A DNA stretch of 64,000 nucleotides, taken from sequence record NC_028448.1; one strand, given 5' to 3'. Source of the stretch: Escherichia phage slur14. Of the stretch, positions 1 through 64,000 are shown in pieces. The position numbers were made by a program, and so were the translations under genes. The first letter of the stretch is position 1. Every line of letters begins with the position of its first letter. The notes below the pieces were generated by a model. It searched no databases, was not told the origin of the DNA, and saw only the letters and a list, made by a program, of their open reading frames with translations.

Positions 1-1590
1 TCTGGTTCTAAAAGACCAATACCAGCATGTGTAATTCCAAAACGTCCAAAAATGATAGGAGTTAAAGAAGTAGATACAAAATTTCTGAAATAGAATACTT
101 TATTTTTAACTAGTGCTTCGTATATAGGAGCAGTCATACTTTGAGCACGATAAACTGTAATGCCTTCTGGTATACGATCACCATTTTCAAAAGCAGAATC
201 TAAATTAGTTATAGCAGCTTCAATTTCTTTTTCACTCATTACTTCATAACGTTCTGGATCATAACGACCCAAAAGAAGATTATTGATGTCAGTATATCCT
301 GAACCGCAATACTCTCTAATGCCACGCTTTTGTGATGGAGTATATTTAGAACCATCACGGGCAATAGTAATATCAATCATTGGACCTGCACCAATTCCAG
401 AGAAACTATAAATCATTCTTTTGAGGAATTTAGTTTTTGTCGCGTTCCAGGAATTTTTAGTTATTTCTTCCCAGACTTCATCTGGCTGTCCTTTACGGGT
501 TTTATTATGTTTATCAAGCCAAGTATCTTTATATTCTTCAAATAATTGATTAACAGCTGCTGCGTATTTCTCTAAACATTTTATTGAAGTAGTCGGTTCA
601 TTTTTAATCGCATTAAGAATTACATCTTTAATTTTTTCAGAAACTTCATTAACCTCACTTTTTGAAAAGAATTTATAGTCATAATGAAGTTCATCTGCAG
701 TTCCTTCGGCAATGATTTTTGCTGCCTTAGTTTTAGAAGCTAATGAATTAATTCCAATTTTCATTTCTTCTGCTTCGGGAATTAAAGGTGCAGTAGCTGG
801 TTTATTAAAATTAGCTGCTGTAGATTCATACTTCTGGAATAATTCACTTTCAAATCTAGAAGACTCTAATGATTGACTTTGTGCAATTGCTCTACGGGAA
901 ATTTTAACTTTAACGATTACAGCTTGATCAGAACGTTTATCATTTTCTTGTGCAATAGATGCTGCAATTGCCTCATTTTTAGTTACTTGAGCTCCAGTAT
1001 CTTTATTGATATAAACATCACCGACCTTCGATTCAACTTTAGTAAAGAGCTCGGTACTAATTTCCGGAACCCCTGGAATGTCTTCTAGCGATACATTTTT
1101 GCGATGTATAAGAATATATGCATACTTTTTATCATAATCCCAGAGTTCCTTAAGAAGGACGTATCTGCCACCTGAACGACTACGGATAAGTCTATCAGCA
1201 ATAACTTGAATTTGTCGAGCTTGACCAGCAGTTTTAGACTTAAGAATACGGAGCATACAGGCATCAATTTTATACTGACGCATTGTTTGCATTGCAACAG
1301 TAAAAACCGAATTGATATAATTAATTGGGCTTGGACCAAGACCTTTCAATTTAGCAATTGAACCTTTAGCGGTTAATGTAAAAGGAACAATATGCATCAT
1401 TTTATCGCCCATCTTTAAATCGCGATTAGTATCACCTCCAGATGTATAGGTACATAAACGAAAACCTGGTTGTTCAATTGCGTCATCAACATGAACTGAA
1501 AAAATTTGTGGTATTTTCTTCTTTGGATTTAAGTTTGTAATTGGAAGAGTAGTATCTTCGTCAAATAATTCTGTAATTAGTTCCATCATA
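1..1590 (-). CDS. alt: ADP-ribosyltransferase Alt, 3' end cut by window edge
   Basis: Continuous minus-strand frame from ATG at 1588-1590 (GAGAGGA SD upstream) running off coordinate 1; translation contains ...YEALVKNKVFYFRNFVSTSLTPIIFGRFG... as remembered for T4 Alt. Absent from ORF track because the stop lies outside the window. Confidence 0.85.
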
Positions 1591-1638: not shown

Positions 1639-1827
1639 TTAGTAATCTAGTGGTAAGAGAGTACGATATATTTCAAACTTTGGTCCTTTTTCATAGGCAT
1701 CAAATGTTTCTGTAAATTTATTATAAGCGTATGCATCTACAAATTCGAGAATGACTTGTGATACAGAAGTAGAAACATCTCCACCTTCTTTTTGAGCAAT
1801 GACAATTGTTTCTAAGTAAGCTTTCAT
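1639..1827 (-). CDS. hypothetical small protein between alt and gene 30
   Basis: 62-aa ORF, start overlaps ligase stop; hairpin plus T-run downstream at about 1620-1640. Confidence 0.5.
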   Translation of the reverse strand: MKAYLETIVIAQKEGGDVSTSVSQVILEFVDAYAYNKFTETFDAYEKGPKFEIYRTLLPLDY

Positions 1828-3287
1828 AGACCAGTTACCTCATGAAAATCACCAAATACATCCTCGAATGTATTAGCTTTAGTTTTATCTTCACGTAAAC
1901 GAATCGCAATCGGAAGAAATAATTTAACGTAATCAGTGCGGCCATCAGATTTTAACCAACCGTTGCATTCGCACTCTAGAATTTTTCCAATATAATAATT
2001 TTGGTTTTCCATAATGCGAGTACGGTCAAGTTCATGTGATTTTACACCGGCTTTATCTTTTAAGCCTGAACCAGCATTTACCTTAATTTTTCCACACTCT
2101 GACTCAAGAATAAATCCACCCGCTTTAGTAGGGTCTTTACGGTGAGGATAAATTCCTACAATTTTTAAATCAACATCAATTACTTCTTTAAATTTATAGA
2201 GATTTTTTGAACGAGCATTTTCCCATAATCCATCGATATTTTTGAGAATAATACCTTCAAGACCTTGGTCAATATACTTTTTATAAATTACCTTAGCTTC
2301 ATCTAGGTTATTTACTACCTGGTTTTCAATTAAAATTACTTTATCATAGCCTGATGTCATTTGTTCTAGTTTAGAAAAACGTACATCATATTTTAAACGA
2401 AACGCCGGAAGACCGTATATTTCTACCAACGGGACATAATCCCAGACCTGAAACTTCATGCATTGAGCTTCTTTTTCGGAAATGGTTCCCTTTAAAGATT
2501 TATTAGCGATTCCATTAGAAGTAGTACGTGATTCAGCTACTTCGGCGAATTCTTTGGCTTTACTAATTTCAGGATAAGCATCAAAAAGAAAATCTAGGCC
2601 TTCTGGCTCCTTTTTAACTTGCTCATGGTATACCAATTCGCCATCAATTAACACGCCTTCTGGATGAATCTGGCGGGCTTCAGCGGTCATTTTGATTAAT
2701 TCTTCCTTAAGAAGATCTAATCCTAGATATTCATTACCGGCTCGTGATAAAAGACGAACATCATCTAATTCATCACCTCTGACTTCGGCAAAGCACCGAG
2801 CCCCATCAGCTTTTAACTGGGCAAAGGCTGGAAATTTGATATTCTTATTAATGCCTTTTTCATCATAAGAACTTGCCAGCATTTGAGGTTGTTCAGGAAT
2901 TAAACCTGGCCAAACTTTGTTTGCAATAGATACTGAAGCACCACATTCAAGGTCTCGCATCATCACTCGACGCAAAACTTCAACATCATCTTTTTTACCA
3001 TCGGTGATATATCCAGTTAATTCCTCAATTGCTGCATTTCCAGTCAATTTCCGAGTAGCTAATGTGAATTCAATGAAGTCAAGCATATCGGTAAGAGTCA
3101 ACATTCCAAAACTCTGGGTAGCAATACCAGGTTTAGGCCATTTCTTGATATAATACTGCAGCCCACGAGAATAAGTCAGACGATATACTCGTTTAAGCAA
3201 TTCATTATCTTTATTCTTTTCAAGAATTGCTTGCTTCTGCTTAGTTGAACCAATAGATGCTATTTCGTTCAGAATTTTAAGAATCAT
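1824..3287 (-). CDS. 30: ATP-dependent DNA ligase gp30
   Basis: 487 aa; KADGAR adenylation motif (LKADGARCFAEV); length and position as T4 gp30. Confidence 0.95.
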   Translation of the reverse strand: MILKILNEIASIGSTKQKQAILEKNKDNELLKRVYRLTYSRGLQYYIKKWPKPGIATQSFGMLTLTDMLDFIEFTLATRKLTGNAAIEELTGYITDGKKDDVEVLRRVMMRDLECGASVSIANKVWPGLIPEQPQMLASSYDEKGINKNIKFPAFAQLKADGARCFAEVRGDELDDVRLLSRAGNEYLGLDLLKEELIKMTAEARQIHPEGVLIDGELVYHEQVKKEPEGLDFLFDAYPEISKAKEFAEVAESRTTSNGIANKSLKGTISEKEAQCMKFQVWDYVPLVEIYGLPAFRLKYDVRFSKLEQMTSGYDKVILIENQVVNNLDEAKVIYKKYIDQGLEGIILKNIDGLWENARSKNLYKFKEVIDVDLKIVGIYPHRKDPTKAGGFILESECGKIKVNAGSGLKDKAGVKSHELDRTRIMENQNYYIGKILECECNGWLKSDGRTDYVKLFLPIAIRLREDKTKANTFEDVFGDFHEVTGL

Positions 3288-3553
3288 TGTTCATCCTTCA
3301 GAGTTTGATTTACAGCTCTATTATAAATCAATTCATCATTAAGCTCAGTTAAAGACCTATGATATGTAGTTCTAACTTTATTTCCTTGCATCCAGTGCTT
3401 GATATAAATGAAACCTTGCTCTACACATTTTTTAAAAATTCGTTCGTCTTTTTGAGCTCGGAATTCTGGATTGCATCTAAAAAATTGATTTACGTGACCG
3501 TAATCACGTGTAGTATTACCTTCATTTTCATAAATAGTGTGAACAACAAACAT
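3284..3553 (-). CDS. hypothetical protein (T4 30.1 position)
   Basis: 89-aa ORF translationally coupled to neighbours. Confidence 0.6.
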   Translation of the reverse strand: MFVVHTIYENEGNTTRDYGHVNQFFRCNPEFRAQKDERIFKKCVEQGFIYIKHWMQGNKVRTTYHRSLTELNDELIYNRAVNQTLKDEQ

Positions 3554-4392
3554 TAGAATGCTCCTTGGAAAATATTATCACCACAAGTAGGTCTATTATA
3601 CAAATACTCTATACCGCCGGGTTTAATATAGTTCCATGTCTGAAACGGATGTGTCTGATATGGATGATATAGATGATTATAAGGATTAAATCCAGGAGTT
3701 CTCCAGGTAGTGTTCCAACGAAAAGAATCGTTTTTAATCATCTTTTCAATTACATCTTTTATAGCTTTTTCACTATCAAAACTTTCTTTATTTTCCTTTG
3801 GTGAAAAAAGCTTATTCTCTACATCGTTCCATGTATAAACTCGCTGAGCAGTTTTTGGAATACTGTCACGTTCCCCTCGAGCCATCCAATAAACAGGAAC
3901 ACTTAATATTTCACTCGCGTGATCGCAGTGGTGAGCGAGATCGTCAATATAACAAATTACGTTATATTTCTCTTTTGCCTTTTTGAACAACTCTTCTTTT
4001 GAAGAATCATGACCACACATCAGTACTTCTGAGAAGGCACCAGGAAAAAGAGCATTCAAATTAAATTGACGATTCAGCAGAGCGTCAATAGAATCACCCA
4101 GCGCTGTAACAGCTACAAAATTATAATCTTCTTTTAATTTGTTAATTACACACAGAGCATCTTTATATGGAGACAAGTAACGAATAAAATCTGAACGATT
4201 GTATTTTTCAATTAACTTGACACCAAGTTCTTCATCACAATTAAAAAGTTTACCAGGAGAAATAAATTTTTCATCTTGGATCATTTTTAAAATATGTTCC
4301 AACGGAAGATTATATTTCTGAGCAAAATAAGGAAGGCCTGATTGCCAGCTTAAACACACTCCATCAATATCAGTTAAAATAGTAGGCTTCAT
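3553..4392 (-). CDS. HAD-superfamily hydrolase-like protein (T4 30.2 position)
   Basis: 279 aa; N-terminal LTDIDGVCLSW resembles HAD motif I (DxDG[TV]). Confidence 0.6.
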   Translation of the reverse strand: MKPTILTDIDGVCLSWQSGLPYFAQKYNLPLEHILKMIQDEKFISPGKLFNCDEELGVKLIEKYNRSDFIRYLSPYKDALCVINKLKEDYNFVAVTALGDSIDALLNRQFNLNALFPGAFSEVLMCGHDSSKEELFKKAKEKYNVICYIDDLAHHCDHASEILSVPVYWMARGERDSIPKTAQRVYTWNDVENKLFSPKENKESFDSEKAIKDVIEKMIKNDSFRWNTTWRTPGFNPYNHLYHPYQTHPFQTWNYIKPGGIEYLYNRPTCGDNIFQGAF

Positions 4393-4853
4393 AGAGAGTC
4401 TCTTAATAGGTTTAACACATCAATAAATTCAGCTTCGGTTAGTATTGTATCATCTTTTGTTAGACCACTAGCCATGCTGTGCTTCAAAACTTTTCCTTTC
4501 GAGGCTTGTAATGCATCACGAAAGCCCTTGTTTTGGATCACTGCTTCAAAATATGCATTTGTGTATAATTCTTTCCACGCCGGGGAGTATCTTGAAAATG
4601 GAACTCCAAGCCAGAAGAGGGTTCCACGGTCCTGAGCTCTTGCATAAGACCTTCCAGCTTGTTGGGCGGCAAGCCCGGATAACCCAAATATACGACGTTG
4701 TTGTTCAACGTTTTTCACCTTGCATCCTTGGAGGAATCCTTCAAGACCTCCAAATTGAATACCATCCATAACGAAAGGCCATTGGGCGAAATTACTTAAT
4801 GTACATGATGGCCACCTAAAATTGCTTCTAATCTCTAACTCAGACATTTTCAA
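4389..4853 (-). CDS. NADAR/YbiA-like (DUF1768) domain protein (T4 30.3 position)
   Basis: 154 aa; LSNFAQWPFVMDGIQFGGLEGFLQ resembles the YbiA/NADAR FSNF..WP..DG core. Confidence 0.6.
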   Translation of the reverse strand: MKMSELEIRSNFRWPSCTLSNFAQWPFVMDGIQFGGLEGFLQGCKVKNVEQQRRIFGLSGLAAQQAGRSYARAQDRGTLFWLGVPFSRYSPAWKELYTNAYFEAVIQNKGFRDALQASKGKVLKHSMASGLTKDDTILTEAEFIDVLNLLRDSL

Positions 4854-5046
4854 TGCTTATAATTTCAACATCAGCCCAATGACCATAGCAAGGAAGACGA
4901 AATTCAACTGGCCAGTTAGGGTCCTTTTCTAATATAATAGACTCAACTCGTGGTTCTTCACGTTCATCAGTATATGGATTTTTATCTGTTACTTTATATG
5001 TGACCTTAATGTACTGAATTCCAAAAATCTTATTAATTATATTCAT
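4840..5046 (-). CDS. hypothetical protein (30.4 position)
   Basis: 68-aa ORF in operon context. Confidence 0.5.
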   Translation of the reverse strand: MNIINKIFGIQYIKVTYKVTDKNPYTDEREEPRVESIILEKDPNWPVEFRLPCYGHWADVEIISIENV

Positions 5047-5240
5047 ACTAATTCCTTTAATCCGTAGATAGGAGATAATTCATCACCCATACGAAGGTCT
5101 TCATTTCCATCTACCCAGGAAACAATATAAGCCTCTTTTATTTGAATACCACTCCATTTAAATGGAGGTAGAACCTTAGAAATTAATCCAGGTATACCAA
5201 CTCCCTTTAATTCAACAGTTTGACCTAAAAAGAATTTCAT
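5043..5240 (-). CDS. hypothetical protein (30.5 position)
   Basis: 65-aa ORF, start/stop overlap with neighbours. Confidence 0.5.
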   Translation of the reverse strand: MKFFLGQTVELKGVGIPGLISKVLPPFKWSGIQIKEAYIVSWVDGNEDLRMGDELSPIYGLKELV

Positions 5241-5527
5241 TAGAACCTCATCTGAAAACCGTGCGATTTAACATTACCGCCGCCAATATCAGAGATATTA
5301 ATTTCGCGCGCAATTGAAGGGTCAATGTCAATTTCGCGATTGAGTTTAGTGATAGCTAAAGTATCACGCCCATTTACAGTACGGAACTCTAAAGGACAAA
5401 CCACATCAACGTAGTTTTTAATCGATTCGCTAGTAGGCTGCAAATGAGCAGGAAGGTCTTTAGGCGCCTTTGAGAAAACCACTTCACAGAAATTTTTGCG
5501 GGTATCAAAATAAGTAGTCATAAACAT
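5240..5527 (-). CDS. hypothetical protein (30.6 position)
   Basis: 95-aa ORF. Confidence 0.55.
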   Translation of the reverse strand: MFMTTYFDTRKNFCEVVFSKAPKDLPAHLQPTSESIKNYVDVVCPLEFRTVNGRDTLAITKLNREIDIDPSIAREINISDIGGGNVKSHGFQMRF

Positions 5528-56205: not shown

Positions 56206-56808
56206 TTATAGATTAAATCCTTCAAAATCAAGAGTATAGATAGTGTATGTTGAATACTTTTTGTATTCATATCTATCTGCAATTCTAAATACACTTCCAG
56301 CTGGTATCATTACTTCTTGTTCATCTGAAACTAATTCCATATTACGATAACGATGACTATCCGGAAACTTAAAGTTTGGATTGTATTCTTTACAGCGTAG
56401 AGCTTTTATAGCATACTCCTGGAAATTGAACACCATAGGAGCTTTGAATTCAAAAATAACTTGTGTGTTATACTCTAAACCGGAAGCAAAATGTAGAGCT
56501 ATATTTTTATCATATGAAGCTGATACGACTTTATCAAATGTAATAATATCAATTCCTTGATTTAACACCTGCTTAGTCTCAGCTGGAACACCTCTCCAAA
56601 GAGGTTTATCGTTTGGAACCAAACGAGATTTGATTATTTCATTTAACCAAGTATGGTCATCTGGTTTGTTGGTAATACAATGAATTAAAAGTTCAATTTC
56701 AGATAAATTAAACCCTTCAGAAAGTAATTCTTCACGAATAGAAGCACGCACCGATGCATCCATTGATTTTATTTTAAAATCTTTTAGTTGCATTATTGAG
56801 TATTTCAT
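56206..56808 (-). CDS. modA: ADP-ribosyltransferase ModA
   Basis: 200 aa. Confidence 0.85.
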   Translation of the reverse strand: MKYSIMQLKDFKIKSMDASVRASIREELLSEGFNLSEIELLIHCITNKPDDHTWLNEIIKSRLVPNDKPLWRGVPAETKQVLNQGIDIITFDKVVSASYDKNIALHFASGLEYNTQVIFEFKAPMVFNFQEYAIKALRCKEYNPNFKFPDSHRYRNMELVSDEQEVMIPAGSVFRIADRYEYKKYSTYTIYTLDFEGFNL

Positions 56809-57428
56809 TCAACTACCTCAATATCATAAACTTTAAATGTTCCAAATGAATCGTGTAATTTTTCTTTTGAAATAGAAGTTATTCTATACTTTCCAATTGG
56901 AATCATCCATTCTTGTTCACGCACAATCATCATTAAGTTATCAGTACGCTCTGAATCTAGCCCATCAGTATCTTCATACGTGTACTTAAACTCAGTATTA
57001 GGAGAAGAAAGTATAATATCGCTGATATGGTCAGAATAATTAAAAGCTTTATCAGTTTTTAAGCGAAGTATTATTTTAGTAAAATATTCAGCATAAGAAA
57101 AAGAACATGCTGTGAGTAAACTAGTAGTAAATGAATCTACCCTGTTCGTTGAAAACACTTCTCCAACTTGTAAATCTTTAATAAGTTCTTCTGTTGATTT
57201 TGATATACCACGATATAACTGATATGGTGATTTAGTTAAATGCTTTTTAATGATTTTATTCAATTGCCGATGAAGAGCTTCATTCTTTTTAGCTTCCATA
57301 CATTGCCAAAGAACAGACTGCTCAAAGTCAGTAAATTTTTCACAGACCTTTTTATACATATCATATTGAAAATCAACGCTTTCAGCTTTTATAGATAACT
57401 GTTCAACATCTGCAAGATTAATAATCAT
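56805..57428 (-). CDS. modB: ADP-ribosyltransferase ModB
   Basis: 207 aa, paralogous to ModA (shared ...EQE[VW]MIP.G...RI... core), coupled to modA. Confidence 0.85.
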   Translation of the reverse strand: MIINLADVEQLSIKAESVDFQYDMYKKVCEKFTDFEQSVLWQCMEAKKNEALHRQLNKIIKKHLTKSPYQLYRGISKSTEELIKDLQVGEVFSTNRVDSFTTSLLTACSFSYAEYFTKIILRLKTDKAFNYSDHISDIILSSPNTEFKYTYEDTDGLDSERTDNLMMIVREQEWMIPIGKYRITSISKEKLHDSFGTFKVYDIEVVE

Positions 57429-63691: not shown

Positions 63692-64000
63692 TTAACCTCT
63701 ATTCATAAAAGCATTAAAAATTTGGTCATCAATAGATGGAATAGCAACCTTTTCGGCATCATTTAGCAAATCATTAATTTCATCAGATATCATAACACAT
63801 GTGCCTTTATTTCCTGTAATTGTTACTGCACAATTACGAACGTTTTCTTTATCAAATTTTAGGTTAATATTTTCGTAGTGAAAATCCTTTAATGCCGAAT
63901 ATATCTTTAAAATGAAATTGTCTTTTACTACAATAAACCCAACTTCACTATTAAAACGTGGTTCATGGAAACTGTAATAAACCTTTTCATCTATGAAATC
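63692..64000 (-). CDS. hypothetical protein, N-terminus beyond window (61.2 position)
   Basis: In-frame minus-strand coding from window end to TAA at 63692-63694. Confidence 0.55.
   Translation of the reverse strand, partial: DFIDEKVYYSFHEPRFNSEVGFIVVKDNFILKIYSALKDFHYENINLKFDKENVRNCAVTITGNKGTCVMISDEINDLLNDAEKVAIPSIDDQIFNAFMNRG

Follow-up and report, generated by a model that had tools for sequence, protein, structure and literature searches.

The closest described relative of the gene considered here is adfN (gene 30.3) of phage T4, reported by Johannesman et al. (Nat Commun 2025, PMC11825919). Its product removes guanine-linked ADP-ribose from DNA in vitro, where it works alone (PMC11825919; PMC11125620). 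AdfN is necessary for the resistance of T4 to DarTG1, and its expression restores the plaquing of RB69 on DarTG1 cells; the E36A mutant of T4 AdfN is defective, K43A gives only partial rescue, and the AdfN of RB69 itself is inactive because a frameshift removes its C-terminal helix (PMC11825919). On infection of a DarTG1 host, DarT1 puts ADP-ribose on guanines of single-stranded phage DNA, and these marks block phage replication; T4 AdfN, a small N-glycosidase of the NADAR fold, hydrolyses the guanine–ribose bond, whereupon ADP-ribose is released, the base is restored, and replication continues. That a phage NADAR undoes DNA ADP-ribosylation by DarT is therefore not new, having been published for T4 between 2023 and 2025. 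Full activity of AdfN-T4 requires a T-even factor, i.e., T-even infection (PMC11825919), and T4 gp30.3 cannot serve as an antitoxin in uninfected cells (PMC11825919; PMC11125620). Given this requirement for a T-even factor, the mechanism of T4 AdfN is not fully closed.

The reported closest relatives of the phage clade are the NADARs associated with DarG1/DarT1 (PMC11825919). These antitoxins, which form the BC4488 subfamily (Schuller et al., Mol Cell 2023, PMC11543638), have the same fold and the conserved Glu and Lys, and they carry out the same reaction as T4 AdfN, the hydrolysis of guanine-ADP-ribose on DNA. [quoted passage not shown] E. coli YbiA (2b3w) is the founding member of the NADAR/DUF1768 family and acts in the clean-up of riboflavin intermediates, unlike gp30.3.

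The DNA analysed here, termed the window, is a stretch of 64,000 nucleotides from Escherichia phage slur14 (NC_028448.1). It belongs to a T4-type phage (Tequatrovirus) and is identical at the DNA level (100%) to Escherichia phage slur03 over positions 3000–5300; the locus is matched by 652 phage records, mostly from Escherichia and Shigella phages. The gene order is that of T4 (alt / alt.1 / 30 / 30.1 / 30.2 / 30.3 / 30.4), and the features are collected in the table. The two adjacent open reading frames of 279 and 154 aa on which the initial annotation was based are where it put them, on the minus strand, and so are the motifs that it quoted, DIDGV in the former and LSNFAQWPFVMDG at residues 19–31 of the latter. 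The length of 154 aa arises because the open frame of 30.3 runs on to a TTG at 4853 (4389–4853); this TTG merely opens the frame, whereas the start in the T4 annotation is the ATG at 4847. The initial annotation also had the pair lying next to DNA ligase. The ligase gene is indeed there, but 30.1, and 30.1 alone, sits between it and 30.2. The genes are tightly packed: the stop of 30.4 overlaps the adfN ATG by 8 nt (ATGTCTGA), 30.1 and 30.2 share 1 nt at the start of the former and the stop of the latter, and the ATGA shared by 30.3 and 30.2 suggests translational coupling. A scan for promoters and terminators gave 22 sites against 21.3 in shuffled sequence, which is no excess. Very probably, the neighbours 30.3 and 30.2 share an early transcription unit in this T4-type phage and do separate jobs, the former as AdfN against DarT1 and the latter as a nucleotidase-like enzyme of the HAD superfamily.

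Features of the gene 30 region and of the ADP-ribosyltransferase genes in the window (residue numbers of gp30.3 follow the 154-aa frame).
Feature	Position	Strand	Remarks
alt (partial)	9-1586		within the window
gene 30, ATP-dependent DNA ligase, 487 aa	1824..3287	-	PF01068, E=1.2e-32
gene 30.1 (DUF3045)	3284..3553	-	PF11243, E=1.2e-64
gene 30.2, HAD-superfamily phosphatase	3553..4392	-	279 aa; 98% identity to T4 gp30.2
gp30.2 C-terminal tail, residues 226-279	3556..3717	-	poorly conserved, low confidence
GGIEYLYNRPT, G259-T269, conserved short motif in gp30.2 tail	3586-3618	-	in 14/100 homologue clusters
HAD motif IV, Asp150-Asp151, predicted Mg2+ ligands	3940..3945	-	invariant, 35 homologues
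HAD motif III, Lys132	3997..3999	-	invariant, 35 homologues
HAD motif II, Thr96	4105..4107	-	T or S, >=90% conserved, 35 homologues
HAD motif I, D8-I-D10-G-V12	4357..4371	-	predicted nucleophile and general acid/base Asp; D8, D10, G11 invariant, 35 homologues
ATGA overlap, 30.3 stop / 30.2 start	4389..4392	-	read from sequence
adfN = gene 30.3	4389..4847	-	152 aa from T4-type ATG; PF08010; 98% identity to T4 gp30.3
C-terminal helix of AdfN, ~residues 140-154	4392..4436	-	helix 140-153 in model; full length vs T4
His125 codon CAC, last beta-strand	4479..4481	-	invariant, 54 homologues; model strand 122-125
Lys45 codon AAG (= K43 in T4), catalytic	4719..4721	-	invariant in close family
Glu38 codon GAA (= E36 in T4), catalytic	4740..4742	-	invariant, 54 homologues; aligns with Glu of YbiA 'SEHYFQ'
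gene 30.4, 68 aa	4840..5046	-	phrog_2042
modA	56209-56808		within the window
modB	56808-57428		within the window

The gp30.3 of the window has the same place as T4 AdfN between 30.4 and 30.2 and the same PF08010 domain; it also agrees with T4 AdfN in the Glu and Lys of the catalytic site, in the His of the phage type, and in having the C-terminal helix. The two proteins are identical at 149 of 152 residues in an alignment that runs full length to the last residue. The three substitutions (A15T, A102V, and I125M in T4 numbering) leave the catalytic residues untouched, and the Met at the third of them is what most members of the close family have. The helix lost from the inactive RB69 allele is intact here. 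On the strength of the 98% identity and of intact Glu38, Lys45, His125, and C-terminal helix, this copy would be expected to be active against DarT1; the window adds another intact adfN allele, and this phage should resist DarTG1. A role in counter-defence against DarT-type DNA ADP-ribosylation, proposed in the initial annotation for both genes, was thus right for 30.3, by way of the published T4 protein (PMC11825919; PMC11125620).

The assignment of gp30.3 to the NADAR/YbiA fold, also made in the initial annotation, was borne out by family profiles, Foldseek, and the conserved Glu and Lys. Single-sequence scans of the two proteins against Pfam, NCBIfam, PHROGs, and PDB sequences gave only PF08010 for gp30.3, together with phrog_420 and phrog_652, both annotated as of unknown function, and no NADAR or HAD family; family profiles and structure models were therefore needed. 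The match of gp30.3 to PF08010 (Phage_30_3) is strong (232.8 bits; cutoff 36), and this family is the one treated in the literature as the phage NADAR subfamily. Against PF08719 (NADAR), gp30.3 itself had no match at E<=1 in the single-sequence Pfam scan. A profile search of 1.84 billion proteins brought in 1135 relatives of gp30.3, and 8 of 54 homologues matched PF08719, none of them reaching the threshold (P0168, for one, scored 27.3 bits where 35.1 were required). Among PDB entries, YbiA ranked first in the profile search (E=0.0084) and again with Foldseek (prob 0.93, TM 0.50), the latter with a gp30.3 model of mediocre quality (pLDDT 68). The N-terminal pattern 'SNFA.WP...DG....E..Q..K' is common to YbiA and gp30.3, with 16% identity between them and a match below the Pfam threshold. 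In the family of 54 homologues, N21, E38, H125, and T139 are invariant. The protein thus has the catalytic Glu and Lys conserved in its N-terminal half, as expected of a NADAR, and, in His125, the last-strand residue of the phage subfamily; unlike the DarG1 type, it has no adjacent DarT and no N-terminal extension, and His replaces the catalytic Asp.

The initial annotation had named the lack of a significant profile hit to NADAR or HAD families, or the loss of conserved catalytic residues, as grounds for giving up its proposal. Read to the letter, the first of these applies, since neither protein has a direct match to PF08719 or to a HAD profile in Pfam; the profiles of homologues do connect to both families, and the catalytic residues are intact in both proteins. 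The fold assignments of both held at greater search depth. The NADAR and HAD links depend on family profiles, on the gp30.3 model of pLDDT 68, and on the literature.

Since the initial annotation pointed to three ADP-ribosyltransferase genes in the window, and alt (partial), modA, and modB were all located, one may ask whether 30.3 and 30.2 together undo or adjust the ADP-ribose marks that the phage's own Alt, ModA, and ModB place on host proteins and RNA. A survey describes T4-like NADARs as early genes expressed along with ADP-ribosyltransferases (PMC9503650). However, all demonstrated NADAR activity, that of T4 gp30.3 included, is on guanine-ADP-ribose in DNA, and the NADARs tested do not cleave thymidine-ADP-ribose (PMC11825919; PMC11125620). 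Moreover, the sole conditional phenotype of 30.3 is that with DarTG1, and modA and modB lie some 52 kb away. We consider such a reversal extremely unlikely, and this part of the initial proposal found no support.

The second protein, gp30.2, was held in the initial annotation to be HAD-like on the strength of motif I, and this was upheld by the conservation of all four motifs, by a confident model, and by HAD fold matches. The AF2 model has a pLDDT of 83, with values above 90 up to about residue 190, lower beyond, and below 50 for most of the tail, which is absent or unalignable in many homologues. It shows a HAD core with an intact active site and a helical cap (residues ~13–85) inserted straight after motif I, i.e., of the C1 type. 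Of the 103 PDB fold matches at E<=1e-3, the 50 listed all have the HAD fold; a further 73 fold matches are among viral structures. Sequence profiles gave less. No HAD family matched gp30.2 itself in Pfam or NCBIfam at E<=1; among 35 homologues, 8 matched PF00702 (best E 3.5e-4) and 5 matched PF06941 (NT5C; best E 1.2e-4), the latter below the curated threshold. Precomputed Pfam domains on 120 gp30.2 relatives comprised none except one fusion with 30.1. No Pfam model covers this family, which is restricted to T4-like phages, and a literature search for a link between gp30.2 and HAD enzymes or phosphatases returned nothing relevant.

What might gp30.2 act on? By fold and active site it is a HAD phosphatase, predicted to depend on Mg2+, and its helical cap encloses the active site, which suggests a small phosphorylated substrate. 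The known enzymes that it most resembles are the deoxyribonucleotidases cdN and mdN (NT5C, PF06941; 2jao, 2i7d, 1q92) and the deoxyribonucleotidase-like protein 3bwv from S. epidermidis, which have the HAD core and the same type of cap. In these proteins, as in gp30.2, an aromatic residue and 'SGL' come after the DxDGV of motif I. By profile, cdN (2jao) is the top PDB match (E=0.02), with DGVlvkWqSGL aligned to DGVLADFESGL, and the best target-normalised TM scores among the matches listed are 0.68–0.71 for 3bwv and 0.62–0.66 for cdN/mdN. Several viral fold neighbours from outside the gp30.2 family are annotated as 5'-nucleotidases. Differences exist: identity to cdN, mdN, and 3bwv is 13–19%, gp30.2 itself has no PF06941 match, and it adds a C-terminal helix and a low-confidence tail of about 55 residues. 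By likeness to the 5'(3')-deoxyribonucleotidases, the substrate is most likely a (deoxy)nucleoside monophosphate; since the NT5C matches fall below the curated threshold, 'nucleotidase' would denote the nearest analogy only.

Another HAD-type phosphatase of the same phage is T4 PseT, the polynucleotide kinase/3'-phosphatase of nucleic-acid end repair, which has a DxDxT motif and a weak profile similarity to gp30.2. A role for gp30.2 as an aid to ligase, either as an end-healing 3'-phosphatase that makes nicks ligatable or by clearing a nucleotide by-product that interferes with ligation, would explain the near-universal adjacency of the HAD and ligase genes. In 70 of 78 related loci, the HAD gene is followed by the ligase gene on the same strand, within 600 bp in 66 of them; where the order of the two is inverted (L076–L078), they still lie close together. 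In addition, there is a weak PHROG match to a polynucleotide kinase/phosphatase (phrog_415, E=0.0036), and proteins of this kind are among the viral fold neighbours of gp30.2. Yet its large helical cap is typical of HAD enzymes that act on small molecules; a cap is lacking in DNA 3'-phosphatases of the PNKP/T4 Pnk type, and the phosphatase of PseT, likewise uncapped, acts on polynucleotide ends. Moreover, T4 already has PseT, and 30.2 is non-essential whereas ligase is essential: in T4 Tn-seq, 72 of 72 TA sites in 30.2 carry insertions, and these are neutral in M9 minimal medium (log2FC -0.10). The related loci are also phylogenetically non-independent, and the HAD–ligase linkage could be synteny inherited among related phages. 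This makes a ligase helper unlikely. A broader version is doubtful: the gp30.2 family would be functionally coupled to ligase across the T4-like phages and might clear an interfering nucleotide or dock the replication/repair machinery via a C-terminal GTGIEYLxxQPT, with NADAR inserted beside it in some lineages and all three acting on damaged or modified replicating DNA. As a phage HAD enzyme, gp30.2 is conserved widely and yet dispensable.

The initial annotation had gone further and joined the two proteins into an ADP-ribose-processing module. In such a two-enzyme pathway, AdfN would free ADP-ribose, and gp30.2 would dephosphorylate ADP-ribose, ribose-5-phosphate, or ADPr-1''-phosphate, or else would potentiate AdfN as the T-even factor. 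The ATGA overlap and the common transcription unit are consistent with this, as is the finding that NADAR immediately precedes the HAD gene at 22 of the 78 HAD loci. In addition, AdfN-T4 reaches full activity only when a T-even phage infects (PMC11825919). RB69 can be rescued by ectopic AdfN (PMC11825919) and appears to carry 30.2, if the loci L009–L014, presumed to be RB69-like from ~75% identity alone, stand for it. Tn-seq of T4 in the presence of DarTG1 speaks against the pathway: insertions within 30.3 disappeared (log2FC -7.25, adj p 0), whereas those in 30.2 were neutral (log2FC -0.12, p 0.61, 71 sites); 30.4 was a second, weaker hit (bioRxiv 10.1101/2025.11.20.689424, Data S6). Consequently, gp30.2 is not required for the counter-defence by AdfN, and a pathway in which both genes are needed is not what these data describe. 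The activity of AdfN alone in vitro argues in the same direction, and the fold neighbours of gp30.2 are nucleotidases rather than sugar-phosphate or ADPr phosphatases.

Nor is co-localisation kept across genomes. In 37 of the 78 HAD loci, a NADAR gene lies no more than 6 kb away, in the order NADAR-then-HAD; conversely, a HAD gene is found within 6 kb in 23 of 80 NADAR loci and is absent from that distance in the other 57. In at least 8 genomes, the HAD and ligase genes are together and NADAR is some 55–60 kb off. The HAD gene thus tracks ligase and not NADAR, and the pairing that the initial annotation proposed did not stand. With respect to DarTG1, the two-enzyme reading is largely refuted, and overall we rate it as very improbable. 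The published Tn-seq suggests that the T-even factor needed by AdfN is not gp30.2, a candidate that was rejected on account of the neutral 30.2 insertions and of the many genomes in which the genes are unlinked. Given the overlapping ATGA, the common operon, and the NADAR–HAD order, a link that is non-essential or redundant could have been missed by one Tn-seq condition. That 30.3 and 30.2 are neighbours in T-even phages is best taken as a matter of gene order within an early region that is itself plastic, rather than as the sign of a pathway of two enzymes.

Both genes are still 'hypothetical' in public records, and the practical value of these results is for annotation: 30.3 may be entered as AdfN / NADAR DNA ADP-ribosylglycohydrolase and 30.2 as a HAD-superfamily phosphatase, NT5C-like.

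Two other kinds of association between the families were considered and rejected. One is a HAD–NADAR fusion, which was absent from 10 multidomain PF08010 proteins, whose partners are a GDSL lipase, LRR, or unassigned regions and never HAD. The other is a tie between the gp30.2 tail and NADAR adjacency, for which there was no correlation across loci: at RB69-like loci, NADAR adjoins a HAD gene of the short form, and loci of the Klebsiella/Citrobacter type have the HAD tail motif and no adjacent NADAR. In two of the loci with inverted order (L076/L077), a divergent NADAR-like open reading frame lies near the ligase and HAD genes.

The two adjacent genes that the initial annotation had proposed as an ADP-ribose-processing pair, encoding proteins of 279 aa (30.2) and 154 aa (30.3), were indeed seen near the DNA ligase gene on the minus strand, in the order of the T4 annotation (alt, alt.1, 30, 30.1, 30.2, 30.3, 30.4). 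Each protein is 98% identical to its T4 counterpart. Between window positions 3000 and 5300 the DNA shows 100% identity to Escherichia phage slur03, and 652 phage records match this region, the majority from Escherichia and Shigella phages.

Features of the locus and of related genes in the window
Feature	Coordinates	Strand	Basis
DNA ligase (gene 30)	1824-3287	-	ORF and Pfam scan
DUF3045 protein (30.1)	3284-3553	-	ORF and Pfam scan
279-aa ORF (30.2)	3553-4392	-	ORF
154-aa ORF (30.3)	4389-4853	-	ORF
68-aa ORF (30.4)	4840-5046	-	ORF
Near-consensus sigma-70-like promoter, TTGACA-18-TAAAAT	6033-6004	-	promoter/terminator scan
Terminator-like strong hairpin and T-run	6441-6420	-	promoter/terminator scan
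Terminator-like strong hairpin and T-run	1641-1622	-	promoter/terminator scan
alt, cut by window start	9-1586	-	70% identical to T4 Alt
modA and modB	56209-57428	-	96-98% identical to T4
gp61.2-related fragment, far end of window	63695-63988	-	36% identical to T4's

In the T4 annotation, 30.3 (adfN) starts at the ATG at window 4847, giving 152 aa; this ATG and the 30.4 stop overlap by 8 nt (ATGTCTGA), and the sequence reads as having no good Shine-Dalgarno ahead of it. The 30.3/30.2 overlap is ATGA and that of 30.2/30.1 one base. A promoter-like site and two terminator-like hairpins flank genes 30.7 to alt.1 on the minus strand, and this bracketing suggests one transcription unit in which adfN, 30.2 and ligase would be co-transcribed, although sites of this kind are no commoner than in shuffled sequence. 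The internal out-of-frame T4 gene 30.3' (window 4484-4711, minus strand) is unconserved: the copy here has ACG for the ATG start and an in-frame stop after ...HILKQ, which suggests that it is not a real gene.

The NADAR assignment of the 154-aa protein had been tied to a PF08719 match; a single-sequence Pfam scan gave none and returned PF08010 'Phage_30_3' instead (232.8 bits), so that formally the initial annotation's own test told against it. Deeper profile and structure evidence supports the NADAR fold. A close-homologue profile, run against 1.84 billion proteins, collected 1135 relatives; all 54 aligned relatives match PF08010, and eight also match PF08719. The best PDB match of the profile is E. 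coli YbiA (2b3w, E=0.0084), over an alignment spanning 'SNFA.WP..DG....E..Q..K', and YbiA is likewise the sole standout in Foldseek (prob 0.93, TM 0.50) with a mediocre AF2 model (pLDDT 68). N21, E38, H125 (in the last strand of the model) and T139 are invariant among the 54 relatives. A His in this strand, where YbiA has Glu and DarG1-type NADARs have Asp, marks the phage gp30.3 subfamily (Schuller et al., PMC11543638; PMC11125620).

The anti-DarT role is already known from the T4 protein, which Johannesman et al. (2025) named AdfN (PMC11825919). DarTG1 is a bacterial toxin-antitoxin defence whose DarT1 attaches ADP-ribose to guanines in phage DNA. T4 without AdfN is sensitised to DarTG1, RB69, whose own allele is truncated by a frameshift, is rescued by ectopic AdfN, E36A and K43A are defective, and purified AdfN strips ADP-ribose from DarT1-modified DNA (PMC11825919). 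A 2024 in vitro study of the gp30.3 NADAR of an E. coli phage, cited by Johannesman et al. as concerning T4 gp30.3, found removal of guanine-linked, not thymidine-linked, ADP-ribose (PMC11125620). Since the present copy keeps E38 and K45 (T4 E36 and K43) as well as H125 and the C-terminal helix, and none of its three substitutions against T4 falls there, the gene may be read as a functional adfN. Many database versions of gp30.3 are truncations of 86-126 aa or chimeras with gp30.7-, gp30.8- or DUF2883-type sequence (PF06919, PF06019, PF11097; clusters P0007, P0012-P0017, P0019 and P0020), so natural T-even phages seem often to break or fuse adfN via deletions, as in RB69.

A functional pairing of 30.2 with 30.3 is not supported by genetics, biochemistry or comparative genomics. 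When T4 transposon insertions were sequenced under DarTG1 (HIDEN-SEQ preprint, Data S6; bioRxiv 10.1101/2025.11.20.689424), only two genes were significant: 30.3 (log2FC -7.25, adj p 0) and, upstream of it, 30.4 (log2FC -1.79, adj p 0.014); 30.2 is neutral (log2FC -0.12, p 0.61, 71 TA sites). Published T4 Tn-seq shows 30.2 to be dispensable in rich medium (insertions at 72/72 sites) and neutral in minimal medium. Furthermore, AdfN acts alone in vitro (PMC11825919, PMC11125620). In the minimal versus rich comparison, a-gt and b-gt insertions are depleted and dda insertions enriched, unconnected with 30.2/30.3.

Among 78 IMG/VR loci encoding gp30.2 relatives, ligase lies downstream of the HAD gene on the same strand in 70 (within 600 bp in 66), upstream in three and missing from the flank in five. 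A gp30.3-type NADAR is found upstream within 6 kb in 37/78 and directly abutting in 22/78; conversely, a HAD gene within 6 kb is seen in only 23/80 loci of gp30.3 relatives. In eight contigs with HAD-ligase, NADAR is about 55-60 kb away, and none of ten multidomain PF08010 proteins scanned carries a HAD fusion. It is therefore ligase that stays beside the HAD gene, whereas the NADAR gene changes place. The HAD-ligase linkage may be partly inherited synteny, because the loci belong to related phages. A distant 183-kb contig (L076/L077, 1986-6597) has a divergent NADAR-like ORF (E=7e-4), ligase, two small ORFs and the HAD gene; ligase and HAD genes remain near each other despite the rearranged order.

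In uninfected cells AdfN-T4 fails to detoxify DarT1, and its rescue of phages that are not T-even is weak; from this the authors inferred the need for a further T-even factor (PMC11825919). The obvious candidate, gp30.2, is argued against by its neutrality under DarTG1. Only 30.3 and 30.4 score there, so the factor is probably an essential or redundant one, or else gp30.4. Formally, gp30.4 is a candidate; the simpler and likely reading of its signal is a polar or translational-coupling effect, as adfN begins within an 8-nt overlap with 30.4 and has no good Shine-Dalgarno ahead of it.

It had also been proposed that 30.2/30.3 reverse the modifications made by the phage's own Alt, ModA and ModB. 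Co-location with these genes, also reported by Iyer et al. (PMC9503650), is all that favours this idea, which conflicts with the guanine-DNA specificity demonstrated for AdfN and is very improbable. The other anti-DarT1 factor of T4 is gp61.2 (AdfA), from which the window's fragment differs considerably.

No curated Pfam or NCBIfam profile matches the 279-aa protein directly, and in PHROGs it falls only in a function-unknown family; the HAD assignment nevertheless holds. Across 35 aligned homologues, the four motifs (D8-x-D10-G-V, T96, K132, D150-D151) vary little or not at all. AF2 models the protein with confidence (pLDDT 83; >90 to roughly residue 190): a Rossmann-like core carries a helical cap directly after motif I, and beyond it a tail of low confidence begins at residue 226. 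Foldseek gave 103 PDB matches at E<=1e-3, all 50 listed having the HAD fold; the best target-normalised TM among those listed is for 3bwv (deoxyribonucleotidase-like, 0.68-0.71), with 0.62-0.66 for cytosolic and mitochondrial 5'(3')-deoxyribonucleotidases. In the PDB the family profile best matches cdN (E=0.02; 'DGVlvkWqSGL' versus 'DGVLADFESGL'), PF06941 NT5C matches 5/35 members and PF00702 8/35, and several viral fold neighbours beyond the family carry a 5'-nucleotidase annotation. These results show the HAD fold and a competent active site, a slight improvement over public annotation. Capped HADs act on small molecules in general, and a nucleotidase-like small-molecule substrate is therefore the best inference.

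The homologues form >100 clusters; named ones are all from phages (hosts Escherichia, Klebsiella, Citrobacter, Yersinia, Serratia, Acinetobacter, Shewanella and others), except one record under Acinetobacter baumannii, whose 169-kb contig is of phage size. Ad hoc names occur on a few, for example 'HAD-superfamily hydrolase' and '5'(3')-deoxyribonucleotidase'. One short stretch of the otherwise poorly conserved, low-confidence tail, residues 259-269 (window 3586-3618, minus strand), is a conserved motif, G(T)GIEYLxxQPT, common to 14/100 clusters, Klebsiella and Citrobacter phages included. This motif may serve as a docking peptide; across the homologue loci compared, it shows no correlation with NADAR adjacency.
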